DNA from: a virus | Lineage: Duplodnaviria > Heunggongvirae > Uroviricota > Caudoviricetes | DNA length: 61,994 nt | Strand: one strand, 5' to 3' | Virus record (IMG/VR): IMGVR_UViG_3300033463_000016 | Location: 1 to 61,994 of that record | The notes under the pieces: generated by a model | The model's input: only the letters and a program-made list of their open reading frames with translations | The model's database searches: none | What the model was told of the DNA's origin: nothing | Position numbers and translations under genes: made by a program | Shown here: piece after piece, positions 27,072-51,873 of the stretch | Layout of the letters: the number at the start of each line of letters is the position of its first letter | Numbering within the stretch: position 1 is the first letter of the stretch

Positions 27072-27925
27072 ATTCCCAACTCCAATCTAATCTGCGGCTT
27101 AATCGGCTCATAATTCTGCATCTCAAAATCTTCAATAGTCATTTCAAAGAAATTTTCATTATTAGAATTAAGAATCAACTTTGGATTAAGTCTTTTTCCT
27201 TCGATAGATTCTTCTAATCTCTGTCTTGTATTTCTTTTTAATAATTCTTTGGCTGCGTCAATGTGTCTGTCATATATTTGTTCATTAGCAACGAAATGAG
27301 TAAACACGCCCTCTTTATATCCTGTGTGACGAGCAATCATCATAAGCAATGCCGCATATTGTACTTCATTGACCATACCGCCACCTGATGCTGTGAGCAT
27401 ATCGCCAGAACGTTGAATCATACACATATCGAGATATTCATCACGCACATTCCAGATCGTACAGAACGCACACGGAGCAAGTCCGGCAGTTTCACGTAGA
27501 TCAGTTTCTTGCCAAAGGCTAATTACTTTTCTGCGACCGTATGGGTCTTTTTTAATACTATCAATAAGGTTATTGATTAGGTCGTATCTCTTGACTGTGC
27601 CGCCGTATCTTTGACCGATTGTACCGTCGCCAATATCCCAATCTTTCCACCAACCAACACCCATTTCCTCCATTTCAGAGATCACATTTGTTGGTTTCTG
27701 ATAGATTGTGAAAATCTCTTTAATTGCTGTTTTCCAAGCAACAGGTCGCAAGGTGCAAATTGGAAATTCGCCATTACTTAAATCATATTTTCTTACAGTG
27801 TGATTAATTGAGATTGTATGTGCGGGAGTCCCATCAGCATATTTTGGTCTTGGATTAACATCCTTATATCCGTGTTCTTGAATATTTAAGATAGTATCAA
27901 CCAAGTATTTATCTGCTTTTGTCGT
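27068..27925 (-). CDS. thyA: Thymidylate synthase ThyA; the SD-predicted start codon is ACG
   Basis: 'LAPCAF', 'QRSGD' and 'IYDRH'; AGGAGGT lies 7 nt before ACG-ACA-AAA-GCA. Confidence 0.9.
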   Translation of the reverse strand, partial: TTKADKYLVDTILNIQEHGYKDVNPRPKYADGTPAHTISINHTVRKYDLSNGEFPICTLRPVAWKTAIKEIFTIYQKPTNVISEMEEMGVGWWKDWDIGDGTIGQRYGGTVKRYDLINNLIDSIKKDPYGRRKVISLWQETDLRETAGLAPCAFCTIWNVRDEYLDMCMIQRSGDMLTASGGGMVNEVQYAALLMMIARHTGYKEGVFTHFVANEQIYDRHIDAAKELLKRNTRQRLEESIEGKRLNPKLILNSNNENFFEMTIEDFEMQNYEPIKPQIRLELGI

Positions 27926-28340
27926 ATATCTCACCTCCTGGTGCATTCGCTTGCATACATTCCAATTCAAAATGACAATCATCTTCGCCACGCTTGATAT
28001 GGCATTTTGGAATATCAAGTTCAACATAAGTAGTTTCGTATCCGTATTTCTTTAACCACTTTTTGTTGATTCGTCTTTTCTTATGTCTGCGTTTTTGCCT
28101 TGTTCCGTCCGGGATCATCATAGTCACCTTAAAATTAGTCGCATATTCATTTTTTGCTATTTCTTGAATAGCAGATAGATTTACCGGTTCTGTTTCCAAA
28201 TGAAAAGATAATGACGATTTGGTTATAATAGGCTTTTCCATATTGTCACATTGGCATTCTTCAAATGAATGGACTTCTGGAATTTTTGATAATTTAATGG
28301 AATTAATGAACAGATTACCATTAGTTAATGATAAACTCAT
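27909..28340 (-). CDS. Hypothetical protein
   Basis: AAGGAGG SD; TGATG coupling to the upstream ORF. Confidence 0.6.
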   Translation of the reverse strand: MSLSLTNGNLFINSIKLSKIPEVHSFEECQCDNMEKPIITKSSLSFHLETEPVNLSAIQEIAKNEYATNFKVTMMIPDGTRQKRRHKKRRINKKWLKKYGYETTYVELDIPKCHIKRGEDDCHFELECMQANAPGGEIYDKSR

Positions 28341-28525
28341 CACATTGCCCTCCTTGGTGGAGCTTGTAGCCAGTGTACGGCGCACCGCGTAAAAGTATTG
28401 CATACCGGACATCTCCTTAAAAATTCAACTCTATTCTCTGTTGTTGGTTTCAAAATAATTGTCCCACATTTCAAGCACTGATAATGGTAATCAAAATGAT
28501 TTTCGATTCTCGTAACATTATTCAT
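28340..28525 (-). CDS. Small zinc-ribbon protein
   Basis: CLKC...CPVC; start overlaps the dnaE stop. Confidence 0.55.
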   Translation of the reverse strand: MNNVTRIENHFDYHYQCLKCGTIILKPTTENRVEFLRRCPVCNTFTRCAVHWLQAPPRRAM

Positions 28526-31500
28526 TGGCATACTCCAAATGAGCAAGGCTGTAATCTGTGACCCATAACTCGTTAGTTCCTTCAACTTCTACCCATTTTC
28601 CTGTTTCATCCTTGTGAACTTTTGGCTTTTTACGAACCTTGCTTATGAGAATCACATCTCCACAATCGAGAGGTGCTTTACCAAATGTTTTTTTATTGAT
28701 CTTGCAATCTAATATCGTGCCATTTTTTAGGGAATACAATTTGACTTTTGGAGAATACTTTGTATCAACCTCTAATACTGCCGCATATCCACTATAATTA
28801 TCATTTGGTGGTATATCAACGTATCCGAGATAATCAACCTGTGATTTTATGACATCATTCATAGAACGAGGTGTATAGTGAATATAGGGCGCTAATGCAG
28901 TAATCATTTCTTGCATACAACTGATTGAAAACTGCGTAGCGGATTCAGAATCAGCAAACTGTCGAGCGATGCCTTCTGGTAATGAAAGTTGCTCACATTC
29001 AGATTTCTTTAGTGTTTTTCTCTTTGAATATTTTTGGAACATTTCGTGTTGAGCAATAAGCATATTGGCGTCGCCAAATTCTTCAAAGAAGTTTAATTCA
29101 ATTAACACTGATGTTTGTTTAGAATTGATTGAAGTGTTGTTTTTAAGGTCATATAATAAATCAATGAAATTGCTGTACTTGTTTGATCGTAATTCATACA
29201 TTTCTTCGGCACATTTAGCATTTAGATTCTTAATGCTTGATATTCCCTTATATATGCTGTTATCCTCTTTTGACATAGCATAAGTACCTTTTGAATATCT
29301 GAATTTTACAGGCTTTAACTTAATACCGAAGTATTCAAGTTCCTTTGTCAATCTGGATGTTCTTGCAGAATCGCCATCATAGGCGTTTAATGCGACGGTA
29401 TAATATTCTAATGGATAGTGTGATTTCAAATATGCACCATATAGGCTATCGTAGGCATATGATAATGAGTGTGATGCGTTAAAGGAATACCTCGCAGCAT
29501 CTTGAACTATCCCCCAAGTTCCCTCAAATCCATTCATAGAGCCTACTTGTGATAACCATCCTTTTGATAGTTTAACCTTCAGATTATTAAGCTCCGCTTC
29601 CTTAAACTTTTTCTTTGAAATCTTTTTGATAATGTCATACGACCCGGTTTCAGGAATACTGAGCCAAATCAGATATTTCATTATCAATTCCTGATAGATC
29701 ATCCTATGATTACCTTCGATAAGTAAGTTATCAAGGGCTTCAACTCCCGTTGAATAGGGTTTCCGATCTATGAAGTCCTGTAATAGTTTCGCACACCCAG
29801 GTCTGATGATCGCAACAAAAGCAGACATTTCCGATACGCTATGGGGACAATATCTTGCGACTAAATCCGTAGCCCAATCACTATCGGCTTGGTTTATTGT
29901 GCAGGTCAATCGCTCTTTATAAATATCGAATGTTTTTTCATCTAACAGTTTGTCCAATTCTCTGATCGTAGGAATTGGTATTCCAGCGAGTTCACAGGTT
30001 GAACGAATCATAGACCAAACAATTACTGAAAGATAATCGTTCTTCAAATATTTATATTTGTCGCAATTGATACCATCTAATAAGCAACAATACACTCCCG
30101 CGTTGGTTCTTACTATTCCGAGTTCTTTTCTAACGGGTTTATCATATAAAAGCATTGAGCAAGGGCTTTCAGAAACGGCTACCACAACCTCACGGAAAGG
30201 TATGCTCTTTTCTATGAGTTTCCCCCACTTTTTATCTTCCGTATAGGCATCAAGATTTTTTGCAATCTCATCGTATTCGCTAATGTGCATCCCGATACCC
30301 TTGCAATAGGTTCTGAATGCTTCTGATTTTTGCATTGGTTTCCAAGTGAGCATCCACGCACAATTCTCTTTACCAAGTAAATCTTCTGTCGCCTTAATAA
30401 AAGGTTCTCTATCAGCCATATTCAAGTCAATGTCCGGTAGGCTCTTGGTTCCCAAGATTCTCTCTACAGACATAAACCTTGTCGGGAATAATGTGATAGG
30501 AGCAGCGATTCTGTCAATATCAGTTAGCCCTAATAGTTTAGTAATATAGAATGATGGAGCAGAGCCACGACCCGTATTTGTGAGTTTGCCGCCATATTTT
30601 TCCTGCCCGTTCTTAGCTACGATGTAGTCAATAAGGAAGTAGTTTTCCATATGGGTTTTCTCTACAATATCAAGTTCGTATCTTATGGCTTCTTCATATT
30701 CACTCCAACGTTCCTCTGGGACATTGTTTCTCTCCTTACTCCACTGTGAGGCTATTAGATTCCTCAAATCTTCCGTAGGATTTTTGGAAATGTTCGGAAG
30801 TTTAATATCATCATTGATTAATGTGATTGGTTCGCATTCATCAAAAATGTTTGTATTGTTCAGCATTTCAGTGACAATTTGCCTTGAACAAACACCTTGC
30901 TGCTCGTACCTTTCAAATATTGTATCCTCTGATGGATAATCAAGAATCATTCCATCTTCGCGGATATAAGACATTCCCTTTGCACGTAATAGAATATCTC
31001 TGTATGATGAATCTTCCGGGAGAATGTAATGGCTATCATTAGCGTGAATGATTGGAATGCCGGTCATTTTATGTAAATCCAACATTCTCCTGTTGACTTC
31101 TTTTTGAAGGTCAATATTATGATCCTGTAATTCTAAGAAGAAATTGCCCTTAAACTTGTTATTCAACGCCAAAACCAGTTCGGTATCTTTCCAAATACCA
31201 GCAACACAAGCCGTTGTAATAATGAAATTTTGCGGTTCTAACGAAAATAATAGTTGCTTATCAATTCTTGGACGAGAATAGAATCCGGTTATATGCGCCT
31301 CCGACATAATATCATTAAGCTGCATTACCCCATCATTATTTTTTGCAATCACAATTAGATGGCGTCTATATTCGCCGGGATTCTTTTCAAATCTATCGTC
31401 CACATAATATGCTTCTGTACCGTAGCACATTTTTAGATTGTATTTGTGTGATTGCTCCATCCAATCGAAGATATTGCCGGTAACTCCGTGATTTACAGTG

Positions 31501-31616
31501 AATACTGTGTCGTGTCCTAATTCAACGGCTCTTTTGCAATAATCCTCTGGCTTCACGGCTACGTCCATTATCCAAGGATTGCCATAGTGGTCGTGTTTGT
31601 GATAATTTTTATACAT
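28518..31616 (-). CDS. dnaE: DNA polymerase III alpha subunit (family C, DnaE-type)
   Basis: PHP domain 'HKHDHYG', 'GRGSA', 'LPDIDL', 'KNDYL', 'YSFNASH' and 'GISSIK'. Confidence 0.95.
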   Translation of the reverse strand: MYKNYHKHDHYGNPWIMDVAVKPEDYCKRAVELGHDTVFTVNHGVTGNIFDWMEQSHKYNLKMCYGTEAYYVDDRFEKNPGEYRRHLIVIAKNNDGVMQLNDIMSEAHITGFYSRPRIDKQLLFSLEPQNFIITTACVAGIWKDTELVLALNNKFKGNFFLELQDHNIDLQKEVNRRMLDLHKMTGIPIIHANDSHYILPEDSSYRDILLRAKGMSYIREDGMILDYPSEDTIFERYEQQGVCSRQIVTEMLNNTNIFDECEPITLINDDIKLPNISKNPTEDLRNLIASQWSKERNNVPEERWSEYEEAIRYELDIVEKTHMENYFLIDYIVAKNGQEKYGGKLTNTGRGSAPSFYITKLLGLTDIDRIAAPITLFPTRFMSVERILGTKSLPDIDLNMADREPFIKATEDLLGKENCAWMLTWKPMQKSEAFRTYCKGIGMHISEYDEIAKNLDAYTEDKKWGKLIEKSIPFREVVVAVSESPCSMLLYDKPVRKELGIVRTNAGVYCCLLDGINCDKYKYLKNDYLSVIVWSMIRSTCELAGIPIPTIRELDKLLDEKTFDIYKERLTCTINQADSDWATDLVARYCPHSVSEMSAFVAIIRPGCAKLLQDFIDRKPYSTGVEALDNLLIEGNHRMIYQELIMKYLIWLSIPETGSYDIIKKISKKKFKEAELNNLKVKLSKGWLSQVGSMNGFEGTWGIVQDAARYSFNASHSLSYAYDSLYGAYLKSHYPLEYYTVALNAYDGDSARTSRLTKELEYFGIKLKPVKFRYSKGTYAMSKEDNSIYKGISSIKNLNAKCAEEMYELRSNKYSNFIDLLYDLKNNTSINSKQTSVLIELNFFEEFGDANMLIAQHEMFQKYSKRKTLKKSECEQLSLPEGIARQFADSESATQFSISCMQEMITALAPYIHYTPRSMNDVIKSQVDYLGYVDIPPNDNYSGYAAVLEVDTKYSPKVKLYSLKNGTILDCKINKKTFGKAPLDCGDVILISKVRKKPKVHKDETGKWVEVEGTNELWVTDYSLAHLEYANE

Positions 31617-32409
31617 CTGAACCTCTAATACTCATTAGCCTGTATTCACAACTGTTTCGGAAATTACATAAATTCGTACAATAGAAGAAATCTTCATTTG
31701 GTTCAAATTCAATTTCTTTTTCGATTTCTTTTATGACATCATCGAACCAGATCATTGTTTCATTATAGGTTTCCTTTATGAATGGGATGGTTGCGAATTT
31801 ACCACCATCTTTAAATAGATTCCAAGTCATTTCCTTGGGAAACTCACCATACAACTGATATATGGCGTGAGAATACAAATACATCTGCTTCTTGTACCCA
31901 TTGAAACTCTTTTCCTCTTTCTTTTTCAGTGTCCCGTCCTTTTTGAAAGGATATTCTGCACTTTTGTGATCCAGGATTACGATTCTGCCATCTTTTTTAT
32001 CTCTCAGAAGTAAATCTATAAATCCAATGAATGGTAAACCATTCACAGTGAATTCAACTTCTTTTTCAACACCGAGAATTTCATAATTGTCTATCCAACT
32101 TATATCTAATGTCGCAAAATAATCGGACATAATGGCAAGGTTTTTCTCCATAGTAGACTTTCGCACCTTGTAGTAGATTCGATCGTCATAATTGTCAATG
32201 AAGTAATCCAAAGCATCTTCCGGCTTCAATTCTTTTTCAAAAATCATAGCCAGTATTTCGTGTATGTAACTACCAAATTCTGCGTAGTAATTGCCCTCGG
32301 AAAAATATAGATCGTCATCGTTCACGACGTAATTTAGATAGTATTCGTATTTGCAATTATGAAAACTGGTGGTGCGAGAGTACGAATAACGTGTCTTTTC
32401 GTTTTCTAT
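31609..32409 (-). CDS. PD-(D/E)XK (RecB-like) nuclease; the SD-predicted start codon is ATA
   Basis: 'SYSR...F..C', 'FGSYIHEIL', 'GFIDLL..D....ILDHKS' and C-terminal 'CxxxCxF.xC'. Confidence 0.8.
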   Translation of the reverse strand: MENEKTRYSYSRTTSFHNCKYEYYLNYVVNDDDLYFSEGNYYAEFGSYIHEILAMIFEKELKPEDALDYFIDNYDDRIYYKVRKSTMEKNLAIMSDYFATLDISWIDNYEILGVEKEVEFTVNGLPFIGFIDLLLRDKKDGRIVILDHKSAEYPFKKDGTLKKKEEKSFNGYKKQMYLYSHAIYQLYGEFPKEMTWNLFKDGGKFATIPFIKETYNETMIWFDDVIKEIEKEIEFEPNEDFFYCTNLCNFRNSCEYRLMSIRGSDV

Positions 32410-32413
32410 ATCC

Positions 32414-33427
32414 TTACACCACCTTTCTTTTATTTGCGTATAATTCTTCCCATATTTCCAACCCGCAATCAACGGGAGAGTTTTTTGTAGCGATGCCACC
32501 CAAAAGTTCATCATCGTCGGCGATGATATATACATTGGTTACTCTTTTGAGTTTGTCTATGTTTTCAGCCACTTCACCAGATGAATAGTCAACATCGGTA
32601 TCGTATCCGATAACAATATCCGCGTGTAAACTGACCAATAATAAGATTTGTTCAGGAGTCAATGTATGTTTTTCAGCAGAGATGCAGTTTTTGTATCCCC
32701 ATTCATATGCTTTCATCACACTTTTGATGGATTCAAAAACAATAACTTCGTGCTGCTCTCGAATATACGGCAATGCCTTTTCTAAACTTTGTAGATAATC
32801 CATAGTGCCTATCTTGTAGTAGTTTATGTACTTGGCTATATCCAACTTTTTATAGTTTGTATATCTTGTACGCCCTTTAATATTGATTAGTTTGCCGTTA
32901 ATATCAAATACCGGATAAACAATACGATTACCTATATCATCTATTCTGATTCCAAATTCTTTTTGGGTTTCGGCGCTTATATTTTCATCAAGCCATTCTT
33001 CTGCTGGCTTTAATTTGTACCTATATAACTCCGATTTTTTAATCTCAGGATGAACGGCAACTTCAACCTGTTTTGGAGTCAAATATGGTCGCCATTTCTT
33101 TAGAAGAATTATGGTTGGGGATTGGCACATTTGAGAAGTATCAATCTTAGCAATTCGGGAGGCTTTCTCGACTGCTTCATCGAATGTTAGCCCCTCGAAT
33201 TGCATTAAGTAGCCAATCATCTTTCCTTTTGCCCCACAAGAGAAGCAATAGAAAGAATTCTCTGAAGGAGTGAAAGACAAGGAAGGTGTTTTATCTTCGT
33301 GTAAGGGGCAATGAGCAAAATAATCATCACCCTTCTGCACCAAGTCCAAAGATTCTCTCACATAGGCTAATAAATCGGCTTTTTCGTTGATTTCTTGTAA
33401 CATTTCATCATCGTATTTAATAGCCAA
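32414..33427 (-). CDS. dnaG: DNA primase (CHC2 zinc finger + Toprim)
   Basis: 'CPLHEDKTPS...CFSC', Toprim 'VFE' and 'GYDTD'; AAGGAG SD with TTG start. Confidence 0.9.
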   Translation of the reverse strand: MAIKYDDEMLQEINEKADLLAYVRESLDLVQKGDDYFAHCPLHEDKTPSLSFTPSENSFYCFSCGAKGKMIGYLMQFEGLTFDEAVEKASRIAKIDTSQMCQSPTIILLKKWRPYLTPKQVEVAVHPEIKKSELYRYKLKPAEEWLDENISAETQKEFGIRIDDIGNRIVYPVFDINGKLINIKGRTRYTNYKKLDIAKYINYYKIGTMDYLQSLEKALPYIREQHEVIVFESIKSVMKAYEWGYKNCISAEKHTLTPEQILLLVSLHADIVIGYDTDVDYSSGEVAENIDKLKRVTNVYIIADDDELLGGIATKNSPVDCGLEIWEELYANKRKVV

Positions 33428-33442
33428 TGTTAATCTCCTTCC

Positions 33443-34801
33443 CTAAAAGTATGTATCTTTGACTCTCTTATGTTGTGTTTTTGATTCTGTAATGGTCATT
33501 ATGTCGCCTCGGAAAACAAAGTCGATATAATCTTCATCGTCATCCTCTTGCATTTGCCTACCGAGTCGGTTGACATATACTTTGGCGTAAGTGTTACCGC
33601 ATTCCATAGTATCTTTTTGAACCAACGATTCAGGTTTGAAATCCCACTTAATGCCGACAGATAAGTAACGGTTAATCTTATCTGAATCTGCAACTTCGCC
33701 TGAGCGATTAAGCTGACAGGCTGATAGAACTGCGAGTTCCAATTCACCGGCGATCCTGTTCTTTAAGAAATCGCATTTAGCACCGAGGATGTTATAGTTA
33801 TCACTTGTTGATGTTTCGTTTGATTTGATGTAGTCAAAAACAACGAATTGTAAACCGATCTGATACTTTAACATCTTACAGATTGAGTACAATTTCTCGT
33901 TGGTCATCTGGGGATCATAGATATGTACAAACGGCTGTTTCTTTAGCCATTCGATACTCTTTTGGATTTTTGCGGCTTCCTGATTGTTATAATTACCATT
34001 TTTGATTCGCTTTACTTCAATCCCTGTAATATGAGATAGAAGTCTTTCTGTATATAAGCGCGTTGGCATTTCGGTATCTACAACGAGTGTTGCTATACCG
34101 TTTTGCAATTTATGTACAGCCTCATTCATAAGGAAAACAGATTTGCCACGCTTATATTTGGCTTGTAATACTGCAAGTTCTCCAATCTCATAGGTGAAGT
34201 ATTCATTCAACAATGAGAATTTTGAGAGAATACCAGACAATCCATTTTCGTTACGCCGGCTAACGATTTCTCCCCAAATTGAATCAATGTCACTTCCGAG
34301 AGTGTGTACTTCGTTGTGAACTATATATCTTTGAGTCAAATCATCAAGCTCGTCCGAAACGCTAACATTGAGTTCGTCCAAGTCGATATTTTTCTGATAA
34401 CATCTCTTTTCTATTTTTTTTAGGGTGAATATTAATTCTCGCTTAAAGGAATTGCTGACGATGTTATTTGCAAATACTTGGTATTCTTCTAACGTATCCC
34501 TTGCGGTCTGTCTATATAAACCCATCAATTCTTGGATCGATGGAAGATTCAATGATTCGAGTTTTTGTTTAACTCCACGATGGCTGTTGATCTTACTCGA
34601 TAAGTTATAGGCATCCAAATTAGTGACGCCATCTTTATAAAGCTCTCGAATAGCCCAATACAAACAACCGTTTTCTTTGTTGTAAAAGTATTCCGGCTTT
34701 AGGTAATCACTATGTAAGATAAAATCGGGGTGCGCGAATAACGTGCCTATAACTGCACCCTCTGATTGAATATCGGATAGTTCCGCGATTTCGTTTTTTA
34801 T
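33443..34801 (-). CDS. dnaB: DnaB-like replicative helicase, 452 aa if started at ATA 34801
   Basis: Walker A 'AKYKRGKS', 'DTEM', 'FDYIK' and 'CQLNR'. The N-terminal 'IQSEGAVIGTL' segment lies upstream of the ORF-track TTG (34663). Confidence 0.9.
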   Translation of the reverse strand: MKNEIAELSDIQSEGAVIGTLFAHPDFILHSDYLKPEYFYNKENGCLYWAIRELYKDGVTNLDAYNLSSKINSHRGVKQKLESLNLPSIQELMGLYRQTARDTLEEYQVFANNIVSNSFKRELIFTLKKIEKRCYQKNIDLDELNVSVSDELDDLTQRYIVHNEVHTLGSDIDSIWGEIVSRRNENGLSGILSKFSLLNEYFTYEIGELAVLQAKYKRGKSVFLMNEAVHKLQNGIATLVVDTEMPTRLYTERLLSHITGIEVKRIKNGNYNNQEAAKIQKSIEWLKKQPFVHIYDPQMTNEKLYSICKMLKYQIGLQFVVFDYIKSNETSTSDNYNILGAKCDFLKNRIAGELELAVLSACQLNRSGEVADSDKINRYLSVGIKWDFKPESLVQKDTMECGNTYAKVYVNRLGRQMQEDDDEDYIDFVFRGDIMTITESKTQHKRVKDTYF

Positions 34802-35340
34802 TGTTTCTCACCCCTCAAAATACTGCCAAAACCAGTTGGTTTAGGTTTACTTATTTTGAATGATGGTGAATCAGTAGGATTATCTATCGGTAATTCATTA
34901 TTCTCCCACATCTTTTTTCGAGCTGCGGCTTGATATGCTTTCTTGATGTAATCCTTATCAACGAAATATTTGAAACCCATTGGATAACGCAAATTCAAGC
35001 GGTGATCTATGATGTAATCTAATGTAAATGCCAAATATTCGCTTGAAATTCCTCTGGCAAGAAGTTCGTTTAAGCATCGGTTTAATTCGCTAAATACAAC
35101 AGTTTGATTAATATGAGTCACCCATTGGTTACGGATATATTTCAAATCATTTTTTGTTTTCTTTTCGCGTCTTGCAATTGCTTTTGCTTCTTCCAGACAA
35201 TCCTTGTGATAGTAATGACCTTTATGGATCATCAGATAATCATCTTTATAGATGTCTATTTTACCGCCGTGTTTGCATTTGTTATATCGGCAAGTTCTTA
35301 TGTGTTTTTTGGGGTTCACTGAAAATTCCGATATTGACAT
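34798..35340 (-). CDS. Hypothetical replication-module protein (possible helicase loader/initiator)
   Basis: CxxxxC/HxxC N-terminus; coupled to dnaB. Function inferred from synteny only. Confidence 0.5.
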   Translation of the reverse strand: MSISEFSVNPKKHIRTCRYNKCKHGGKIDIYKDDYLMIHKGHYYHKDCLEEAKAIARREKKTKNDLKYIRNQWVTHINQTVVFSELNRCLNELLARGISSEYLAFTLDYIIDHRLNLRYPMGFKYFVDKDYIKKAYQAAARKKMWENNELPIDNPTDSPSFKISKPKPTGFGSILRGEKQ

Positions 35341-35957
35341 TATTCTTTTTCCTCCATTAAATATGTAGCTTCCAAATCGGCAATGCTAATGGCTAATACC
35401 AGAGGATATTTCTCAATAGCAGCGGATAATGTCTTATGGCTTTCTTTAGGTTCAGAGAATCCCATATGCCAACGAATAGCATATCGCTCAATTGGTTCCA
35501 ATTTGATATACTGTTCAATCATCATTACTGACTTTTCGCCGTGACCGTAAGGAATCCGGTCATCAACCGTATAGCTCTCATATGATTCCCAATCAAATCG
35601 ACCTATACTATCTTTTTTGGTTCCGTTATCCGAATAAATCTTTCTATTACGAACCTCTTTTGCGTAAAAGTAAGATTTACATATATCGTGTAATAAGGCG
35701 GCGATCGTAATATTGGTCTGTGTGGCATTGCACGATTCAGCCCAAAGTTGATCGTCAAGTTTTTTAATGAGCCTGTTATATACGTTCAAAGAGTGTTCCA
35801 ATAAACCACCCTCGTGACAGGAATGGTAAACTGTACTTGCGGGGGCAGTATAGAAATCTGATTTGCGGATAAACGCAATCAAATCTTCTATACCTTCCCT
35901 ATTGGTTTCCCTCAATAAACGCTCGAACAGTTCAATGTTGCCCTTGCTATCCGCCAT
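35340..35957 (-). CDS. HD-domain phosphohydrolase
   Basis: 'YHSCHEGGLLEHS', 'LLHDICK', 'GHGEKS' and 'IRWHMG'. Confidence 0.85.
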   Translation of the reverse strand: MADSKGNIELFERLLRETNREGIEDLIAFIRKSDFYTAPASTVYHSCHEGGLLEHSLNVYNRLIKKLDDQLWAESCNATQTNITIAALLHDICKSYFYAKEVRNRKIYSDNGTKKDSIGRFDWESYESYTVDDRIPYGHGEKSVMMIEQYIKLEPIERYAIRWHMGFSEPKESHKTLSAAIEKYPLVLAISIADLEATYLMEEKE

Positions 35958-35959
35958 AA

Positions 35960-36505
35960 TTAGAACGGTAGATCATCTTCACCGGATTCTTCATCTGGTT
36001 CAGTTTCGGGAGTCATTTGTTTCTTTGTCTTTGTGGTTTTTTCAGCCTTTGCGGTTTTCTTGGTAGATTTGCTCTCTGATGCGCTCTTATTGCTTTTTGC
36101 GTTTTCTTCTACAAGTTCAAACGCAAAAATAGCGTAATTGTGATACGTCTTTTCTGTTTTTGAACTGAAATATGTTGTAGCTTCGCAGGAGGTAATCTGA
36201 ATAGGCAATCCTAAAGTCTTACCTTTTGAATCGGTTGGGATGCTTAGTCCCATAACCTTTTCGTAAGCATTTCCGACAAAGCGGATGAACCCATCTTGAA
36301 AATCGGGAATCCAATTCTTCCCGTCGGCTGCCTTACGGCTTGTACTTAACCTGCATTCAGCATAAGACTCCTTATCCTCAATTTCCCAAATACGGGCATA
36401 TCCGCCTGTTCTATTTTTTGCGAGAGCGTCTGATAGAACATTTTCGTCAATGCCAAGTGCATCCGCTAAACCTTTAATATAAATATTTGCTTGTCTAAAA
36501 CCCAT
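35960..36505 (-). CDS. Single-stranded DNA-binding protein-like
   Basis: OB-fold-like core, acidic tail ending 'DDLPF'; next to the SSAP gene. Confidence 0.7.
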   Translation of the reverse strand: MGFRQANIYIKGLADALGIDENVLSDALAKNRTGGYARIWEIEDKESYAECRLSTSRKAADGKNWIPDFQDGFIRFVGNAYEKVMGLSIPTDSKGKTLGLPIQITSCEATTYFSSKTEKTYHNYAIFAFELVEENAKSNKSASESKSTKKTAKAEKTTKTKKQMTPETEPDEESGEDDLPF

Positions 36506-36518
36506 TATGTTGCACCTA

Positions 36519-37157
36519 TTACTTTCTTATCTTCAATAATTGCTTACGTAACTTTTCGAGGACATCAATATCGTTGATGTTTTCGATCTTGCCGGTGATG
36601 TATGAATCATCCAGATCGGGATTAGTTTCTTTCTCTGCTGTTTTGCAAAGATTAATTGCTTCTTCCTGTGCCTTGTCTGACAGTTTTGACTTCGATTTTG
36701 CCAATCCCTTAACTACTTCTTGGAGTTCAAGAATCTTGCCCTCTGTTTCGGGAATATCCTCATTCATATACAGATAACCGCCGATTCCCAATCTTGCGAT
36801 ACACTTGGTAAGGCTTCTTTGGATTGTCTTATTGACAGCCATTGCATCAACTTTATCGTAAGGGATCGCATTGTTTCTGAAATCCATACAGGGCAAATAT
36901 TCGGTAACAGTATGCTCTCGTTTGATATTATCGTCATCAAACCACACGATAGTAACCGACGTTTTGACGTGACAACCAATAGGATCGCGCCATACAAGCA
37001 TTCCATCCTCTGTTTCGTGGACAGTTGAATATGATAGTGGAAATCTCTCTTTGAGCTTTTGCCAAGCCCACATCCAACTGAGATACTTCATTCCATTCTT
37101 TTCTCTAACGTAATCATTAACGTTAATTTCACTCAGTTCTTTGAACCAATTTTCGAT
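36519..37157 (-). CDS. Sak/DUF1071-like single-strand annealing protein; the SD-predicted start codon is ATC
   Basis: 'KNGMKYLSW.WAW', 'EYLPCMD.RNNAI' and 'NKTIQRSLTKCIA.LGIG.YLY..ED.P'. Confidence 0.85.
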   Translation of the reverse strand: MENWFKELSEINVNDYVREKNGMKYLSWMWAWQKLKERFPLSYSTVHETEDGMLVWRDPIGCHVKTSVTIVWFDDDNIKREHTVTEYLPCMDFRNNAIPYDKVDAMAVNKTIQRSLTKCIARLGIGGYLYMNEDIPETEGKILELQEVVKGLAKSKSKLSDKAQEEAINLCKTAEKETNPDLDDSYITGKIENINDIDVLEKLRKQLLKIRK

Positions 37158-37207
37158 AGTAACACCTCCCAAAAATGAAGTAAATAAAAAACTAATTTTA
37201 TTGTCAG

Positions 37208-37290
37208 TTTTGATTCTTATTTAGAATTATAACAGCATTTTTGATTCTTTATAAGAATTATAAATGCCTTTTAATTCTTTCATAGAACAA
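37208..37290. repeat. Three ~30-bp tandem units, each with an ATTCT-N5-AGAA(T/C) palindrome; overlaps TATAAT boxes upstream of the replication genes
   Basis: Units begin at 37208, 37239 and 37269. Confidence 0.7.
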
Positions 37291-37353
37291 TCATCTACAC
37301 CAACTCCTTCACTTTTTGCTATCTATATCATCACTCATAAATGAGTGTAATTT

Positions 37354-38761: not shown

Positions 38762-38762
38762 T

Positions 38763-41418: not shown

Positions 41419-41426
41419 CATACCTC

Positions 41427-42047: not shown

Positions 42048-42048
42048 A

Positions 42049-42778: not shown

Positions 42779-42798
42779 AATAACCACTTCCTTTATTT

Positions 42799-44181: not shown

Positions 44182-44183
44182 TA

Positions 44184-44519
44184 TCAATCACACGATCTAT
44201 TTTTAATTGCTTCAATATCTTCTTGAATATATCTTATTTTGGTTTCGGTATCTTCTAATTTACTATCTATTGAATCCAATAAATCAAAAATATGTTGTAA
44301 TAATTCATCATTACTTAAATTGTTAGACATTATTTTCGCCTCCAAATCTTTATCTATTATTTCTTTTGTCGTGAATAGTAGTAGATTTATTTCATTATCC
44401 GTTCCATTTTTAATACAGTTGAGATCATCAAGAATATTAGCAATAGAATAATTGATTTGAGATATATGAATATTAAATGATTGTATTATTTTGATAATAT
44501 TTAGGTATTTTGTTTTCAT
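44184..44519 (-). CDS. AT-rich hypothetical protein with an internal in-frame start at 44330
   Basis: GAGGTG SD at the first start; GGAGG SD at the internal start. Confidence 0.5.
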   Translation of the reverse strand: MKTKYLNIIKIIQSFNIHISQINYSIANILDDLNCIKNGTDNEINLLLFTTKEIIDKDLEAKIMSNNLSNDELLQHIFDLLDSIDSKLEDTETKIRYIQEDIEAIKNRSCD

Positions 44520-44535
44520 ATAACACCTCGATTCT

Positions 44536-45477: not shown

Positions 45478-45658
45478 ATGCTCAATATTAAATGGGTTGT
45501 ATGAATTTGATTTTTTATTTATAGATTCATTGCGGTGATGTTCTATTATTGAACACTATAATCTTTACTTAACCGCGATCAAAGTAGATAAAAAGTAAAG
45601 AAAGGCGTGAAAATTAGGGATTTTATGGCAGAAAGTGATAATAAAAAATCAATTTGAT

Positions 45659-46108
45659 TTATGCTGCTTTCAGTTTTGATCGCAACCTATTAAGCTGGGA
45701 ACAAAACTCTCTTTGTGTAAGTACCGTTTCTTCAATCTTTCTTTTACCGATCGAATGAGTAAACGTGCAATCTCCGGCAGCGTTCAGTGCTTTTCTGAAG
45801 GAATCATTTTCAAATAAAGCATCATAAGCGCCGGTAAGTAAGTCTTGGTATTCTTGACTACCTCGCTGGATTGGATTACCTTTCCAATATAATGTCTGTG
45901 TCGCATACCAATTCTTTTTCCTGCCTTTATTCTTAGCCTTGATTCCAACCAATTTACAGACTTCTTCCTGCATATTTTGGTCTTTGAATTTCAGGCTTTG
46001 TAAAAATCCTTCCATACTTGCGCATTGCACGCCATCATACTCGAACGGATGCGGTGCGAAATTAGATAAGGCGCTCGATGGATAGGAATTCTTACTTCCT
46101 ACATCCAT
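45659..46108 (-). CDS. NADAR-family protein (T4 gp30.3-like)
   Basis: 'SYPSSALSNFAPHPF..DGV.CASMEGFLQSLKF'...'TLYW.G'...'F.HSIG......TVLT..EF'. Confidence 0.7.
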   Translation of the reverse strand: MDVGSKNSYPSSALSNFAPHPFEYDGVQCASMEGFLQSLKFKDQNMQEEVCKLVGIKAKNKGRKKNWYATQTLYWKGNPIQRGSQEYQDLLTGAYDALFENDSFRKALNAAGDCTFTHSIGKRKIEETVLTQREFCSQLNRLRSKLKAA

Positions 46109-46109
46109 T

Positions 46110-46589
46110 TCAGGTTTTTCCTTTCTCTTTTTCAATTAGCGATTCAGCGATATATTCCATAGTGAATACTTCGTGAACACTTATATAATATCTATTTACT
46201 TTATAATCGGCATAAGATACTTCACGAACTTGCTTATATATCTTGATTTCGCTATTATCATCTATCGTAAGCCAAAGATATTTGACTCTTTGATTGTATC
46301 GTTCATCATATACTCGATAATCTTGTCCGGGAGCAATCTTAAAATCATTGGTGATAGCATCTTCTCTGAATTCGATAAATGCACCGTAATCACCAATAAC
46401 AATTCGATCGTACCACTCGCAGATAGGAGAACCATTTATCGTGAATAATGGCACTCTTGCTCCGTTAATTTTTAAATATTTTGGTATATTTTCGATCCAA
46501 AATATATGATATTTTCTTGATAGGTTATCCGGTAAATTTTTATATTTGTATTTCTCGGCAAGTTTTGCTTCAATTTTCAGCGTATTCAT
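46110..46589 (-). CDS. Hypothetical protein
   Basis: 159-aa ORF in the gene run. Confidence 0.6.
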   Translation of the reverse strand: MNTLKIEAKLAEKYKYKNLPDNLSRKYHIFWIENIPKYLKINGARVPLFTINGSPICEWYDRIVIGDYGAFIEFREDAITNDFKIAPGQDYRVYDERYNQRVKYLWLTIDDNSEIKIYKQVREVSYADYKVNRYYISVHEVFTMEYIAESLIEKEKGKT

Positions 46590-46598
46590 TATCTTGGT

Positions 46599-46844
46599 TT
46601 ATATATCTTTTCTTTCAACAACGTTTTTGAGTGTATCTAACAATTCATCTACGGTATCTACACTAAATTGGAGATCACCAACGTTTGCCTGTGCAATCAT
46701 AGATTTTTTACTGCTCGTGAATAAACTCTCAGGCATATTGCTGAGATAATCATCTTCATCACAAAGAATATTATGTAAACTCTCGCGCACAGTGGTTAGC
46801 TGTGTTTGCACTTCTTTGATTTGTTTTCTTCTTTTATTATTCAT
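46599..46844 (-). CDS. Hypothetical protein
   Basis: GGGAG SD; 'MNNKRRKQI' start is common in phage ORFs. Confidence 0.6.
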   Translation of the reverse strand: MNNKRRKQIKEVQTQLTTVRESLHNILCDEDDYLSNMPESLFTSSKKSMIAQANVGDLQFSVDTVDELLDTLKNVVERKDI

Positions 46845-47152
46845 TGATAAACTCCCTTTACGATAATCTGACGATCTTTAATATATTTCATAATATTATC
46901 AAGTGCATAACATTCGCCATCAATCATACCGACGCAATGCCACTCACCATCCGAATTTCTTTCACGGCATTGTTTACTTACCTTATCGTGATATTCTGAA
47001 ATATATTGAACCAATAATGTAAGTTCATCGTCATCAATAACCGGAGTCGGCAACTTGTCCGGCGTAAACGTTGGATCAATGTTCAACACCATATTCCGTG
47101 CTTCCGGCGACATATTATCCCACGTCTTTTGTTTATTTTCGAGTTCCGTCAT
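46841..47152 (-). CDS. Hypothetical protein
   Basis: ATGA couplings at both ends. Confidence 0.6.
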   Translation of the reverse strand: MTELENKQKTWDNMSPEARNMVLNIDPTFTPDKLPTPVIDDDELTLLVQYISEYHDKVSKQCRERNSDGEWHCVGMIDGECYALDNIMKYIKDRQIIVKGVYQ

Positions 47153-47397
47153 TGCCACTGTCCTTCTTTCTTGTTCGGATAATCCCTTACTCGTTTATAC
47201 CATTGCGATCTGGCGGACGACATTGCTCTTTCGATTGTGGCTTTTGCAGAACTTGCTCGGAACTGCTTGTGTTTTTTGCACCAGATCGTCACTGATCCGC
47301 CCATACCACAAGAGCCTTTGACATTAATCTTTGGAGTTTTGCCACAAATCGGACACGGCGGCAGCGGATATTTTTCTTGTTTCTTTTTGAATATCAT
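47149..47397 (-). CDS. Lar-like zinc-ribbon protein
   Basis: 'LPPCPICGKTP...IWC'. Confidence 0.5.
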   Translation of the reverse strand: MIFKKKQEKYPLPPCPICGKTPKINVKGSCGMGGSVTIWCKKHKQFRASSAKATIERAMSSARSQWYKRVRDYPNKKEGQWQ

Positions 47398-47415
47398 TTT
47401 ATTTTCCTATTATTG

Positions 47416-48033
47416 TCATTCCAACATATCTGGATTATCAAAGATATTGCCTATTACAACAATGTCGTGTAAAAAGCTGGATGCACTACGATGCTTATGT
47501 TCGATATACCACTTCAAATTTTCTTCCGATATATAATGTCCCCATCCATAATGAGATAGGTTTTCCCAATGGTGTAAGCAACGCTTTATCTTCTCGCCAT
47601 TACGAGGCTCACATAACTTGTCGTTGTAATTATTTTCAAAATATAATTGCCAATATCCACCACGAAAAACAATTACTCCACGAACCTTTATGTTGGTATC
47701 ATTTTTAGTAATTACTCTTTCATTCCAGTAATAAGGTCGCCTTTCAGCCCAAACCTCAACAATATCGTGCTCAAATATTGGTTTATTCTTGCTGCGATCC
47801 TCAAAAACAAATTCGTTATATCCCGTATATTGTCCTACGGTTCTTGACATAACACGGAAGTTACTTTCTTCTAAGCCTGTTTGACGAATATTGATGGTCG
47901 CGTAGTCATATTCAGGTACATAACGCGATAGATTACCTTCAACCCATTCGTTATGCCTATCTGCACGTTTTCCTCGAAAGAATATATCACGTGTATGTAA
48001 ACCTAAATTGATGATTAGAGATTCGTTTTCCAT
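47416..48033 (-). CDS. YopX-family protein
   Basis: 'RDIFFRGKR..WVEG', 'VGQYTG', 'IFEHDIV' and 'VIGNIFDNPDMLE'. Confidence 0.85.
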   Translation of the reverse strand: MENESLIINLGLHTRDIFFRGKRADRHNEWVEGNLSRYVPEYDYATINIRQTGLEESNFRVMSRTVGQYTGYNEFVFEDRSKNKPIFEHDIVEVWAERRPYYWNERVITKNDTNIKVRGVIVFRGGYWQLYFENNYNDKLCEPRNGEKIKRCLHHWENLSHYGWGHYISEENLKWYIEHKHRSASSFLHDIVVIGNIFDNPDMLE

Positions 48034-48041
48034 ATCTGTAG

Positions 48042-48716
48042 TTATTCACCTTGCGGTAACAATCTTCCCATACCGTCAGATAGCTTCTTATATGTATCGC
48101 TGCACATCAGCATAGACACAACATTTTCGGTAAGCGTCTGTCTGGTGGATTCATCAAAATAGGTCTTGATGTTCTGATTGATTTCTTTCTGTAATCCTTT
48201 TGTGAACTTATCAATCTGTATCGCTGCTTCACATTCGGCGGTATATTTGATTTTTCCAACGTCAATCTTTGACAGTCTGCTTTCAACTTCTTGCGCGATA
48301 TACTGGCGTCGGGTCATTTTTTTACTGCTGCAAAAACCACCAATACAGATTTCAGCGTCAAGGAAATCGTTAAATGCTTTATCAATAACAGAGTCAATCT
48401 TAGCATCAACTTTTGTGGCAACCTTTGTGCGGATTTCTTCTCTCATTTCGTCATCAATGATTTTTTTGACTTCTGCGCTTGCGATTGATTCTGCCTTTGA
48501 TTCAACAGTATTTTGGATTGTATGCCTGATATAATCAGACATAAACTGAGAATCAATTTCGATCTTCATACCCTTGTTTCTGATTTCCGCTTGATCGTTA
48601 TAAGGGCAATACTCATATCCGCGACAACCTTGCTCGTCCTCATAATCACAATGCGGAGTACCGTCGTCCCAAGACCAACCACCGAAATGATCGCATTTGC
48701 TACATTCTTTGCTCAT
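48042..48716 (-). CDS. Hypothetical protein (Cys-rich N-terminus, coiled-coil body)
   Basis: AAGGA SD; 224 aa. Confidence 0.6.
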   Translation of the reverse strand: MSKECSKCDHFGGWSWDDGTPHCDYEDEQGCRGYEYCPYNDQAEIRNKGMKIEIDSQFMSDYIRHTIQNTVESKAESIASAEVKKIIDDEMREEIRTKVATKVDAKIDSVIDKAFNDFLDAEICIGGFCSSKKMTRRQYIAQEVESRLSKIDVGKIKYTAECEAAIQIDKFTKGLQKEINQNIKTYFDESTRQTLTENVVSMLMCSDTYKKLSDGMGRLLPQGE

Positions 48717-48766
48717 TGTTTCATTCCTTTACTTTCCTGAATGTAAATTATTTCTCTTTAGAATCA

Positions 48767-48883
48767 TTAAATACTAAGCCAAATTTTACAATTCCAATCT
48801 TCCCATTTATAAAGATATGGATAATAAGGGGTTATTAGCCACCACCAACCGCTCTCGGTTAGTCCTACAAGTTCGGCTTTCAT
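48767..48883 (-). CDS. Possible 38-aa Trp/Tyr-rich ORF missed by the ORF track
   Basis: MKAELVGLTESGWWWLITPYYPYLYKWEDWNCKIWLSI fills an otherwise empty gap; SD is weak. Confidence 0.35.
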   Translation of the reverse strand: MKAELVGLTESGWWWLITPYYPYLYKWEDWNCKIWLSI

Positions 48884-48889
48884 TCGACT

Positions 48890-49135
48890 TTAATCATTCT
48901 CCGTATCTCCGGCAGCCATAAATTGATCCACCATTGATTCCGGTGATCCATCTGGTATTTCTTCACATACCAGAGTAGAAAGGATAATGCAGGGATATTT
49001 AACCTCATCGTCGGCAATCAAAACGCATTCTTCGATTTTGTGGACGATATTCTTTTGATAATTGATAATCGGGATATGTACGTGAGCGTTTTCATCAAAA
49101 CGCTGAAGGTATTCGATTAGTTCTTTTGCTGTCAT
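48890..49135 (-). CDS. Hypothetical protein
   Basis: AAGGAG SD before MTAKELIEYL. Confidence 0.6.
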   Translation of the reverse strand: MTAKELIEYLQRFDENAHVHIPIINYQKNIVHKIEECVLIADDEVKYPCIILSTLVCEEIPDGSPESMVDQFMAAGDTEND

Positions 49136-49561
49136 TTTTATCTCCTTTGTTATAAACAACAACCATAGATGGGAACGGAGCAGAATTTTCGCTGCCGCCA
49201 AATTTCAGCCTACCTCTTATGAATCTAATCTCAGCTTTTCCTAAGATGTAGTCGTGAAACCATCTCGTATCTGTTCTCGCTGGCAATAGCATTACAATGG
49301 TTTTACCCTTTAGGCTCTCCTTATATGCTTTCTGAACCCAACTAATTACCCCCTGCCGTATGGTGGGTTACAGTATGTACTGTCATCCCACTCTTGGCTG
49401 AGTCCGTCATTTTCTTTCGTGTAGTATCTATCGCATTTATGATTCGTGTCACTTGCCGCAGAATCTAATGTAAATCCAAACTCTGAGTTTAGATTATCAA
49501 AGAAAATTTGTGGTGTTTCCCAATCATCTTTCGCGCTCGAAAACATCAAATCAGTGTTCAT
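49095..49561 (-). pseudogene. Phage Dam-type N6-adenine DNA methyltransferase, frameshifted in a G5 tract (49349-53)
   Basis: First half 'DDWETP...F.LD.AA...CNPPYGR'; second frame 'ISWVQKAY...MLLPARTDTRWF...RGRLKF..SAPFPS'. Confidence 0.85.
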
Positions 49562-49977
49562 TAGATACCGCCAAGAATGTCCGCTAAGGAATCCACCTTC
49601 AGTTCGGTTGCCTTTTCTGACGAGAGCAAAGAATCCAACTGTGATTCAAGCCGATCGAGTTCTCTGCGCTTCACCTTACCTGTTGCGATCTTTTCCAAGG
49701 TAGTAATGTCATCGAACCAATCAGTAAGGGCAAATCCGCAGTAAATTGTTTCTTCCGGCTTCTTTCCGAGTTCTTCCGCAGCCATCATTAAAGCCTTAAC
49801 AGGAAGAATCAGATCGTTATACTCGGTGATTGTATGTAGATTGTAGTTATGCCCGAAAAGTACAAGCATACAGTTTGTTTTCGGGACAAATTTTGTAGGA
49901 ATCTTTTTCAATTCCTCACGCTTTTCTGCCACAGTTTTCTTTAATTGTAGAATCTTTTCATCGTTCTTATTACTCAT
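49561..49977 (-). CDS. Hypothetical coiled-coil protein
   Basis: Coupled to its neighbours; AGGT SD. Confidence 0.6.
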   Translation of the reverse strand: MSNKNDEKILQLKKTVAEKREELKKIPTKFVPKTNCMLVLFGHNYNLHTITEYNDLILPVKALMMAAEELGKKPEETIYCGFALTDWFDDITTLEKIATGKVKRRELDRLESQLDSLLSSEKATELKVDSLADILGGI

Positions 49978-51133
49978 TTCCAATACCTATCCTTTTATAT
50001 TCTTTACCATTCATCAAATATTGGATGCCACAACAGGGCTTGAACACATCAAAAATAGTTTTAATGCTACAATAACTTGTTTTATTGTAACTTCTACCTC
50101 TATTTGAAACGTACAAAGATGCAATTTGATTATCGTAATATATCGTTTCAGAATCAAATACTCCATCTTTACAGAAAAAGAATTGTTTGCCCCAATATTT
50201 TGATGAACTTGTTGCTATCCAAATGCTTATATCATTATGAAATTGATCGTAAGTTAAAGGCACAATTTTGTTTTTCGTCACATCAATAGGAGAAAAGAAG
50301 TCTTGATTTTCGACCTTATTTTCAAAGAAAACTTTGTAGTCGGGATGGCACGTCGAATCTACACATTCGATAAACTTTTTAGGCAACGATCTCCAATGCG
50401 AAACGTAAGAACCCCATCTTCCCATATCCAATCTGTTATTTTCTAATTCAGCAAAATAATATTGGTAGCCGCAATCCTTGTACATATAGTATGCGTCAAC
50501 TATTTTGAAGTCTTGGCGTAATATAGTCAAATTGTCTATCGCACAATTGAAATCTTCTCTTGGAACGGTGGAGTGAGTGGTATCATAGTATTTGTATCTT
50601 CCTAAGTACACATATAACTTGTCAGTCAAGGTTTTATATGTGGCTCCAACAATCAAATCCTTGCCTTTTATAAAATTGTTGTTCTGGCGAATGGTGTTCT
50701 TATCTACAATAGTTTGGTAATCCGGCGACTCTGTTGGAACGAGAACCAGGTCTTTTCCGTCCCATCCATAGATGTACTTTCCTTCAAGACCTTTGCCCTT
50801 GATGCAATTTGAGCATTCCAAAATCCAAAGCAAATTCTCTATTGTTATCTCAAACTCAAATCCACGCGGATCATAAACTCTCGAATATGTATTTCGGTGG
50901 TTCCAGCCATAATTGTCACCACCAGCCTTTTTGTTGAGAACGAATCCCTCTAAAGGCTCGTTCTCATAGATTTCATTAGGAATGTCTTTATTGCGCCAGC
51001 CATTCCAAGACGGCTCTTTATGTAGTTTTCCTTTGTCGTCAAAGTAAACCACATAAGCGAGTTTGCCAGTATAAGTATCTTGCCTGTTCTGAAATCCGAC
51101 GTTAATCTTCGGAGGTATGTAAATATTACTCAT
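49970..51133 (-). CDS. Hypothetical phage protein (387 aa)
   Basis: GAGG SD; long ORF in the gene run. Confidence 0.7.
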   Translation of the reverse strand: MSNIYIPPKINVGFQNRQDTYTGKLAYVVYFDDKGKLHKEPSWNGWRNKDIPNEIYENEPLEGFVLNKKAGGDNYGWNHRNTYSRVYDPRGFEFEITIENLLWILECSNCIKGKGLEGKYIYGWDGKDLVLVPTESPDYQTIVDKNTIRQNNNFIKGKDLIVGATYKTLTDKLYVYLGRYKYYDTTHSTVPREDFNCAIDNLTILRQDFKIVDAYYMYKDCGYQYYFAELENNRLDMGRWGSYVSHWRSLPKKFIECVDSTCHPDYKVFFENKVENQDFFSPIDVTKNKIVPLTYDQFHNDISIWIATSSSKYWGKQFFFCKDGVFDSETIYYDNQIASLYVSNRGRSYNKTSYCSIKTIFDVFKPCCGIQYLMNGKEYKRIGIGNE

Positions 51134-51722
51134 CTTCTTCAACCTCGTACTTGCTGATACAATCAACTATTCCGGTTGCGACGCCATATTTCAAAGCATC
51201 TTCGCTATGGAAATACCAATTTTGCTTTTTCTCTCGATTTTCTTTGAGTGTTTTCCGAGAAATCTTTGTGCGATCGGCGACGTATTCTTCCTGAGAGTTT
51301 TGAAGCCAATCTAATTCCTTTTGGTTTTCAAATAAATCCTGGAACTTGCCGCTGCGCCGAGCGGATAGCTGATGATACATCAAAGTAGCGTGAGTAGTTA
51401 CAATTCTTTGATCTCCTGCCAAGAAAATCATAAACGCAGCACTCATAGCGTAACCAGTGCAGTAAGTGATAATAGGTGTTTCAGATTGAAGAATAATATC
51501 AATGAGTGACCACATATTGTAAACATCACCCCCGAAAGAGTTGATATAAATATGTATCGGTTCTCTTTGATAGTTCTTTTCTTTTTCATCTTTTATCTTG
51601 TCCTGTGCGAGAAGATACAATAAGTTGAAATTGATCCGGCTGATCGTATCCTCGTCAACGGTATCGGTTATATAAAAGATGCGTTCATCAGTATGGATAT
51701 AAATATTATCTCTGCTTGAAAT
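51126..51722 (-). CDS. ClpP-like serine protease; the SD-predicted start codon is ATT
   Basis: 'IYINSFGGDV', 'GYAMSAAF' (Ser), 'LMYHQ' (His) and 'W...EDA.KYG'. Confidence 0.8.
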   Translation of the reverse strand: MSSRDNIYIHTDERIFYITDTVDEDTISRINFNLLYLLAQDKIKDEKEKNYQREPIHIYINSFGGDVYNMWSLIDIILQSETPIITYCTGYAMSAAFMIFLAGDQRIVTTHATLMYHQLSARRSGKFQDLFENQKELDWLQNSQEEYVADRTKISRKTLKENREKKQNWYFHSEDALKYGVATGIVDCISKYEVEEDE

Positions 51723-51873
51723 GGCTACCACCTACCTTATTATTTTTTAGGTTCTTAATCATTACAATAAGCTGTAATGTGCAAACGATCAGATTCAATG
51801 AGCCGACAACAAGAATCGCAAAGGAGAAGTTGCCTAATGTCATTTCTCTGAATATTGTCTGAAAGAAGTCTAT
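51706..51873 (-). CDS. Small single-TM protein missed by the ORF track (start ATA 51873 or ATG 51843)
   Basis: 'FSFAILVVGSLNLIVCTLQLIVMI' hydrophobic helix; fills the gap between genes. Confidence 0.45.
   Translation of the reverse strand: MDFFQTIFREMTLGNFSFAILVVGSLNLIVCTLQLIVMIKNLKNNKVGGSHFKQR

Follow-up and report, generated by a model that had tools for sequence, protein, structure and literature searches.

Do the replication and nucleotide genes of a phage begin at codons that are one base away from ATG, and if so, what does this mean for their expression? The question is raised by the first 61,994 nucleotides (nt) of a tailed-phage genome of the class Caudoviricetes, IMG/VR record IMGVR_UViG_3300033463_000016; this whole stretch, which was analysed here, is called the window. 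In a first-pass annotation, six open reading frames (ORFs) on the minus strand had been proposed to start at such near-cognate codons, each preceded by a Shine-Dalgarno (SD) sequence: the single-strand annealing protein gene sak (ATC), the helicase gene dnaB (ATA), a PD-(D/E)XK nuclease gene (ATA), the thymidylate synthase gene thyA (ACG), a ClpP-like protease gene (ATT) and, as a possible sixth, a small membrane ORF (ATA). All six codons and the SDs upstream of them were found where expected when the sequence was read directly (Table 1). For the first five genes, comparison with related phages indicates that the codons are probably genuine near-cognate initiation codons (AUA, AUC, AUU and perhaps ACG) behind extended SDs, an arrangement that would amount to a built-in attenuation of translation.

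The phage genome is a single contig of 170,934 bases (approximately 171 kb), of which the window is the first 62 kb. It is 100 % complete according to CheckV, belongs to the IMG/VR ends class linear, without terminal repeats, and appears to be that of a cattle-gut phage, near-identical DNA being present in bovine gut metagenomes. A set of 221 ORFs was chosen by coding potential over the whole genome, and approximately 130 related loci, drawn from collections of viral, metagenome and genome sequences, were compared with it, together with four whole related phage records (G001 to G004; the present genome is G000). SDs are used throughout the genome: a canonical start codon behind a strong SD was found for 141 of the 221 ORFs (ATG 123, TTG 11, GTG 7), mostly at an aligned spacing of 5-8 nt, and 176 of the 221 start at a canonical codon preceded by an SD. 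When the module was compared with a phage GenBank collection by megablast, no match was obtained, and the protein-level matches in that collection were all below 30 % identity and uninformative on starts.

In a genome-wide, rule-based scan, five genes credibly combined a strong SD with a near-cognate codon and lacked a canonical start, namely sak, dnaB, the nuclease gene, thyA and the ClpP-like gene. These are located within 24 kb, in a module of replication, recombination and nucleotide genes, and represent approximately 2 % of all genes. No case was found on the plus strand of the window, as the first-pass annotation had claimed. Two further flags of the scan (G000 65707 and 150205) were rejected as weak starts, being a poly-G frameshift site and an internal site, and the extra flags at several sites in G003 and G004 were likewise poly-G frameshift sites or internal SD-like motifs.

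The predicted position of the start is firm for sak, dnaB and the nuclease gene, which have no usable canonical start and for which Pfam domains and the N-termini of homologues agree. A near-cognate start is probable for the ClpP-like gene and only weakly indicated for thyA, the weakest of the five. Numbered from the beginning of the open frame, the Pfam domains start at residue 11 (DnaB_N), 9 (SSAP_Sak), 50 (PDDEXK_1) and 44 (Thymidylat_synt), which fits initiation at the weak codons.

In sak, the column of the ATC is occupied by ATG in homologues with 69 and 57 % identity (range 57-69 %), and the SSAP_Sak domain begins 3 residues downstream of the codon. The next in-frame canonical codon within the gene is codon 23. 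The more divergent sak of G001 has ATA where its own relatives have ATG, and contig L116 has ACG at the start column. Since sak is the first cistron after an intergenic region of 180 nt, translational coupling is impossible there and is not a general explanation of the weak starts. The intergenic region upstream of sak (window 37173-37353, minus strand) also contains two direct repeats of approximately 30 nt, each starting with TATAATTCT, which may be paired promoters or operator sites of the sak operon; a promoter scan upstream of sak did not find a consensus promoter on the minus strand.

The frame of dnaB opens at position 34807, two codons before the ATA, and the first canonical codon in the gene is codon 47 (TTG 34663), or codon 92 in G001. 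The DnaB protein is 85 % identical to that of G001 along its whole length, and the G001 gene shares both the ATA at this column and the ATAA overlap, although these are embedded in different flanking codons. Of the first 50 codons, 30 are identical in the two genomes, 14 differ synonymously and 6 non-synonymously, a ratio which indicates that this region is translated. More distant relatives have an ATG start two codons further on. Fusion of the upstream gene to dnaB by a -1 frameshift was considered and rejected, as a slippery site is missing ahead of the stop and G001 has a different junction sequence yet keeps the ATAA.

In the nuclease gene, profile position 2 of PDDEXK_1 corresponds to the eighth residue from the ATA. 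G001 and G003 share the ATA in this column, and in both the frame is devoid of canonical codons from the in-frame stop to the conserved WSYSR motif. Across the relatives the column contains ATA (3 phages), ATC (6 contigs), ATG, GTG or TTG. In the six metagenome contigs the ATC directly follows the primase stop (TGA ATC), and the nine codons after it vary only synonymously while the ATC itself is constant. These contigs form one clade in a maximum-likelihood tree (support 92/89), consisting of three sub-lineages with 64-73 % DNA identity between them; at this column TTG is found in the sister of the clade and ATG or GTG in further branches. The SD helix of the nuclease gene is broken by one mismatch.

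The ATT of the ClpP-like gene is found in a column with ATG in homologues of 54 % identity and ATC in G003. The sixth candidate did not hold: in G001 to G003 the homologues of the small membrane ORF begin with ATG at most one codon from TTG 51879, so this TTG fits the homologue N-termini and the ATA at 51873 is not needed as a start.

Weak codons are thus shared with relatives at dnaB (G001), the nuclease gene (G001, G003 and the six-contig ATC clade) and the ClpP-like gene (G003, as ATC); at sak the relatives are divided between ATA (G001) and ATG, and at thyA the weak codon is not shared. Such codons persist under purifying selection, in dnaB and in two lineages of the nuclease gene that have diverged by 30-35 % in DNA sequence. 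As ATG is only one base change away, higher output has at least not been favoured. Relatives as a whole gave a mixed answer to the expectation that ATG at these columns would speak against the weak starts: distant relatives have ATG at sak, thyA and the ClpP-like gene, whereas the closest relatives are weak at dnaB, the nuclease gene, the ClpP-like gene and sak. The first-pass observation that ATG could be substituted at sak, dnaB, the nuclease gene and thyA without altering an overlapping protein was confirmed (the overlapping codon would change from TAA to TGA at dnaB and from TAC to TAT at thyA).

G000, G001 and G003 have many weak starts and G002 and G004 few, and the G004-like contigs that the scan of the genome collection found binned with Clostridia metagenome-assembled genomes have canonical starts in all cases. 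Within the module the primase, the HD-domain protein, the alpha subunit of DNA polymerase III and two small proteins have canonical starts in every relative examined. A deoxynucleoside monophosphate kinase-like gene has ATA in G001 and ATG in G000. The restriction of weak starts to replication genes does not extend across the clade, as the G003 orthologue (G003 59323) of the reverse transcriptase of the diversity-generating retroelement (DGR) has ATT ATA in place of TTG. Outside the window, a possible further weak start was noted at G000 128259-128273 (plus strand), where AAGGTGGTG is followed 8 nt later by ATT and the SD itself contains two GTG codons in frame; in the G003 orthologue an ATT is likewise located 8 nt after AGAAAGGAG, and canonical starts are absent from its vicinity.

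Table 1 Positions of the candidate start regions and of other features mentioned in the text (window numbering unless marked G000)
Feature	Position	Strand	Remarks
sak, start codon ATC	37155..37157	-	Single-strand annealing protein; aligns exactly with homologue ATG
sak, extended SD GGGAGGTG	37163..37170	-	8-nt helix, aligned spacing 7
sak, gene from ATC	36519..37157	-	212 amino acids; Pfam PF06378, E=4.7e-28
dnaB, start codon ATA	34799..34801	-	Overlaps stop of upstream gene as ATAA
dnaB, SD	34808..34816	-	Helix GGGGTGA, aligned spacing 9
dnaB, gene from ATA	33443..34801	-	452 amino acids; Pfam DnaB_N + DnaB_C
PD-(D/E)XK nuclease, start codon ATA	32407..32409	-	4 nt after primase stop TAA
Nuclease, SD AGAAAGGTGGTG	32417..32428	-	Inside primase 3' end; conserved as AAGGTGGT in all relatives
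Nuclease, gene from ATA	31609..32409	-	266 amino acids; Pfam PDDEXK_1, E=2.8e-21
thyA, candidate start ACG	27923..27925	-	Aligns with ATG of relatives
thyA, extended SD AGGAGGTGA	27931..27939	-	9-nt helix, aligned spacing 8; strongest of the five
ClpP-like protease, start ATT	51720..51722	-	Probable, from homologue columns
ClpP-like protease, SD AGGTGGT	51727..51733	-	Aligned spacing 8
Small membrane ORF	51706..51879	-	Usable TTG 51879, 2 codons upstream of ATA 51873
DGR reverse transcriptase	16872-18158	+	Pfam RVT_1; TTG start here and in G002
tRNA-Ile(UAU)	G000 86439-86514		From phage tRNA set; without initiator features

The SDs at the weak sites are of a particular type. Pairing of GGTG(A) with the tail of the 16S rRNA, on the start-codon side of GGAGG, was found at 4 of the 5 weak sites compared with 38 of 176 canonical genes (22 %, Fisher p=0.011), and SD scores were also higher at the five weak sites than at canonical genes (p=0.026). 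The aligned spacing was 7-9 at the weak sites; in canonical genes it was 3-12, with a median of 7. Folding of 81-nt RNA segments around the five sites, with z-scores between -1.3 and +1.2, revealed no special or conserved structure. The stop-start geometry with the SD in the upstream gene is seen at dnaB (ATAA) and at the nuclease gene (TAA + 4 nt), both junctions being kept in relatives, and is absent at sak.

These features suggest how the starts may function. The host initiator tRNA would read AUA, AUC, AUU and perhaps ACG, presumably as formylmethionyl-tRNA, and long SD pairing towards the start, of the GGAGGTG(A) type, would fix the ribosome with the weak codon in the P site. The combination of a weak codon and a long SD would be expected to result in a small, steady amount of protein, at a low output. 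In E. coli, AUA, AUC and AUU have been reported to give approximately 1-2 % of the output of AUG, and other codons including ACG 0.1-1 % (10.1101/063800), values according to which such codons would lower output. The enzymes concerned, a helicase, a recombination nuclease, an annealing protein, a protease and thymidylate synthase, may be needed in few copies or be harmful in excess. At dnaB and the nuclease gene, ribosomes arriving from the upstream gene would probably add some initiation by termination-reinitiation.

It had been inferred in the first-pass annotation that the phage may throttle its replication proteins at initiation. The part of this that stands is that real weak codons are clustered in the replication, recombination and nucleotide module and that their output would be lower; gating of that output in a dynamic manner by initiation factor 3 (IF3) or a phage factor was not supported. 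A dynamic throttle, in which the amount of IF3 or the state of the initiation factors gates the output of the module, perhaps with the help of a stage-specific phage factor that relaxes discrimination, would be compatible with the use of just those codons with 1-2 % output in E. coli. Initiation at S. aureus ccpN changes with the growth medium (PMC13009471), overexpression of IF3 lowers re-initiation (PMC2268962), and the phage is temperate and encodes 28 tRNA genes, including two initiator-like tRNA(CAU). Such a throttle is nevertheless unlikely. There was no match to IF3_C (PF00707) in the 171-kb genome, whereas control genomes were matched, and feedback of the infC type does not apply, as there is no phage IF3 homologue and the gene products are unrelated to initiation. 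Conserved RNA structure is absent around the sites, no switch is indicated by the sequence, and a similar initiator-like tRNA(CAU) occurs in G002, a phage almost without weak starts.

The two phage tRNA(CAU) genes (G000 83857-83933, minus strand, and 133932-134008, plus strand) have a common acceptor stem TGCGGGA and both have the initiator-type A11:U24 and U1:A72; in one of them the anticodon stem is AU/GC/GC and the loop, UUCAUUG, is unusual. A role of phage tRNAs as a special initiator was rejected, since tRNA-Ile(UAU) is without initiator features and the initiator-like tRNA(CAU) is not lineage-specific, being found in G002. A clade-wide start-codon regulon, with the helicase, nuclease, annealing protein, protease and nucleotide enzymes placed on codons subject to IF3 discrimination, that would tie the output of the replication module to the initiation fidelity of the host (the ratio of IF3 to ribosomes, or growth state) is similarly improbable. 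If true, it would make the translational status of the host a signal for productive replication of a temperate phage lineage.

Several points weigh against built-in attenuation by genuine weak starts. The evidence for the starts is sequence comparison, and the codons are predicted initiation sites; as one mutation of any ATG yields a near-cognate codon, codon identity by itself proves nothing. The thyA column contains ATG in essentially all of approximately 80 relatives, the closest included, and the ACG is unique to this genome, seen in contigs of the source run alone at approximately 12x depth; it may be a recent, damaging mutation. This gene also has in-frame canonical alternatives, GTG 27934 inside the SD, TTG 27904 (codon 8, located 4 nt after the upstream stop) and ATG 28027 (34 codons upstream). 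The ClpP-like gene has an in-frame GTG (51731) inside the SD, without an SD of its own, and its G003 orthologue likewise has a GTG inside the SD; initiation at this GTG is possible on sequence grounds. As to whether the weakness was selected or merely tolerated, third-base conservation statistics are suggestive, at approximately 0.05 combined by our own estimate.

The alternative codons at thyA and the ClpP-like gene, together with TTG 51879 of the small ORF, TTG 37172 of sak and ATG 32535 of the nuclease gene, would also be expected if the starts had been mis-assigned, most genes beginning at a nearby TTG, GTG or ATG and the near-cognate codons being sense codons or untranslated. There is, however, little probability of this. 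No such canonical codon exists for dnaB, and ATG 32535 would make the nuclease gene overlap the primase gene by approximately 120 nt, and G001 and G003 lack it, their nuclease frames extending no further than 48 and 63 nt upstream. The TTG of sak, its only nearby in-frame canonical codon, is upstream of the SD and without its own SD, the GTG codons of thyA and the ClpP-like gene are inside the SD, and starts at downstream canonical codons would remove conserved N-terminal motifs.

Genuine near-cognate starts were also assessed against sequencing error, with assembled contigs of public runs. Contigs of the probable source run were identical at the thyA, nuclease, dnaB and sak starts at 10-13x depth, the ClpP-like gene and the small ORF being outside the compared stretch. 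A contig from an independent metatranscriptome study was identical over 36738-37270, including the ATC of sak. Contigs of independent runs gave no visible cover of the thyA, dnaB and nuclease start codons except for one contig of 151 nt, which spans the nuclease start and has one difference of unlocated position. The independent sak contig and the same weak codons in diverged relatives exclude chance errors at sak, dnaB and the nuclease gene, in line with the first-pass argument against random errors. Errors of sequencing or assembly that happened to fall on start codons can accordingly be considered extremely improbable, even though the source contigs are the only record of the thyA ACG, since the relatives with the same codons were assembled independently, another study has the same sak ATC, and five chance hits on approximately 660 start-codon bases in 171 kb are implausible. 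A-to-I editing of AUA was rejected as it cannot account for ATC, ATT or ACG.

Contigs of a bovine gut metatranscriptome library match parts of window 32432-37270 with 99-100 % identity, suggesting that the phage or a close strain occurs, and is perhaps transcribed, in the animals of another study. Elsewhere in the window (49098-49561, minus strand), five consecutive G interrupt a gene for a Dam-type N6-adenine methylase (Pfam PF05869): its N-terminal part (profile positions 7-71) ends ...NPPYGRG-stop, and its C-terminal part (positions 74-128) is read in the -1 frame. The split reflects either phase switching at the poly-G tract or a homopolymer error. Outside the window, at G000 65700-65730 (minus strand), the same CAGGGGGTA context precedes an IIIDPFANG methylase motif, and this is probably a second poly-G frameshift site.

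The predicted starts have a practical consequence, as gene finders limited to ATG, GTG and TTG would truncate or wrongly extend these proteins: 46 residues would be missing from the N-terminal domain of DnaB (91 in G001) and the nuclease would gain a false extension of 42 residues overlapping the primase. The comparative evidence suggests that certain replication and recombination enzymes have long been held on weak starts in the evolution of phages of Clostridia-type hosts. In one nuclease gene the start switches among ATG, GTG, TTG, ATC and ATA, which supports the view of the start codon as a tunable dial of phage gene expression.

Weak start codons are known from E. coli, in which the AUU of infC serves the autoregulation of IF3 and pcnB, also with AUU, is translationally limited. 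The phage genes resemble both in that output would be limited by a weak start codon. Unlike infC, which feeds back on its own product, they are unconnected with IF3, for which the phage has no gene. The nuclease junction (TAA, 4 nt, ATA) resembles the thrS-infC junction of E. coli, where infC begins 3 nt after the thrS stop (UAA GGU AUU) and the coupled AUU gives twice the level of a single-cistron AUU and one quarter of the ATG level (PMC3592434). The ATAA of dnaB, with the SD in the upstream gene, has the geometry of the ATGA type of termination-reinitiation pairs (ATGA, TAATG; PMC6728339, PMC12548453), and relatives of the nuclease gene have TAATG, or TGA directly followed by ATC, as in such pairs. 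In contrast to these pairs, the restart codon in the phage is near-cognate, and sak has no upstream cistron.

The closest likeness is to S. aureus, in which ribosome profiling with retapamulin identified initiation at AUA (infC, ccpN) and AUU (cvfC1) behind extended SDs, and in which reporters of cvfC1, ccpN and citZ gave output strongly below that of the ATG versions (PMC13009471). As in infC, ccpN and citZ (AUA) and cvfC1 (AUU) of that organism, the phage genes combine a long, start-proximal SD with a weak codon where homologues have AUG (PMC13009471). In the S. aureus set the weak codon is conserved among relatives. The reduced reporter output has been measured there, whereas the phage starts are predicted from the DNA and its comparison. 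They differ further in being phage genes, in occurring five within 24 kb, in the use of AUC and possibly ACG, and in the stop-start coupling of two sites. The mechanism is thus already known for chromosomal genes of Firmicutes, and the phage provides a dense, well-supported further example of it and not a new mechanism; new here are the tree of nuclease start codons, the comparison at the level of the clade and the point about truncation by gene callers.

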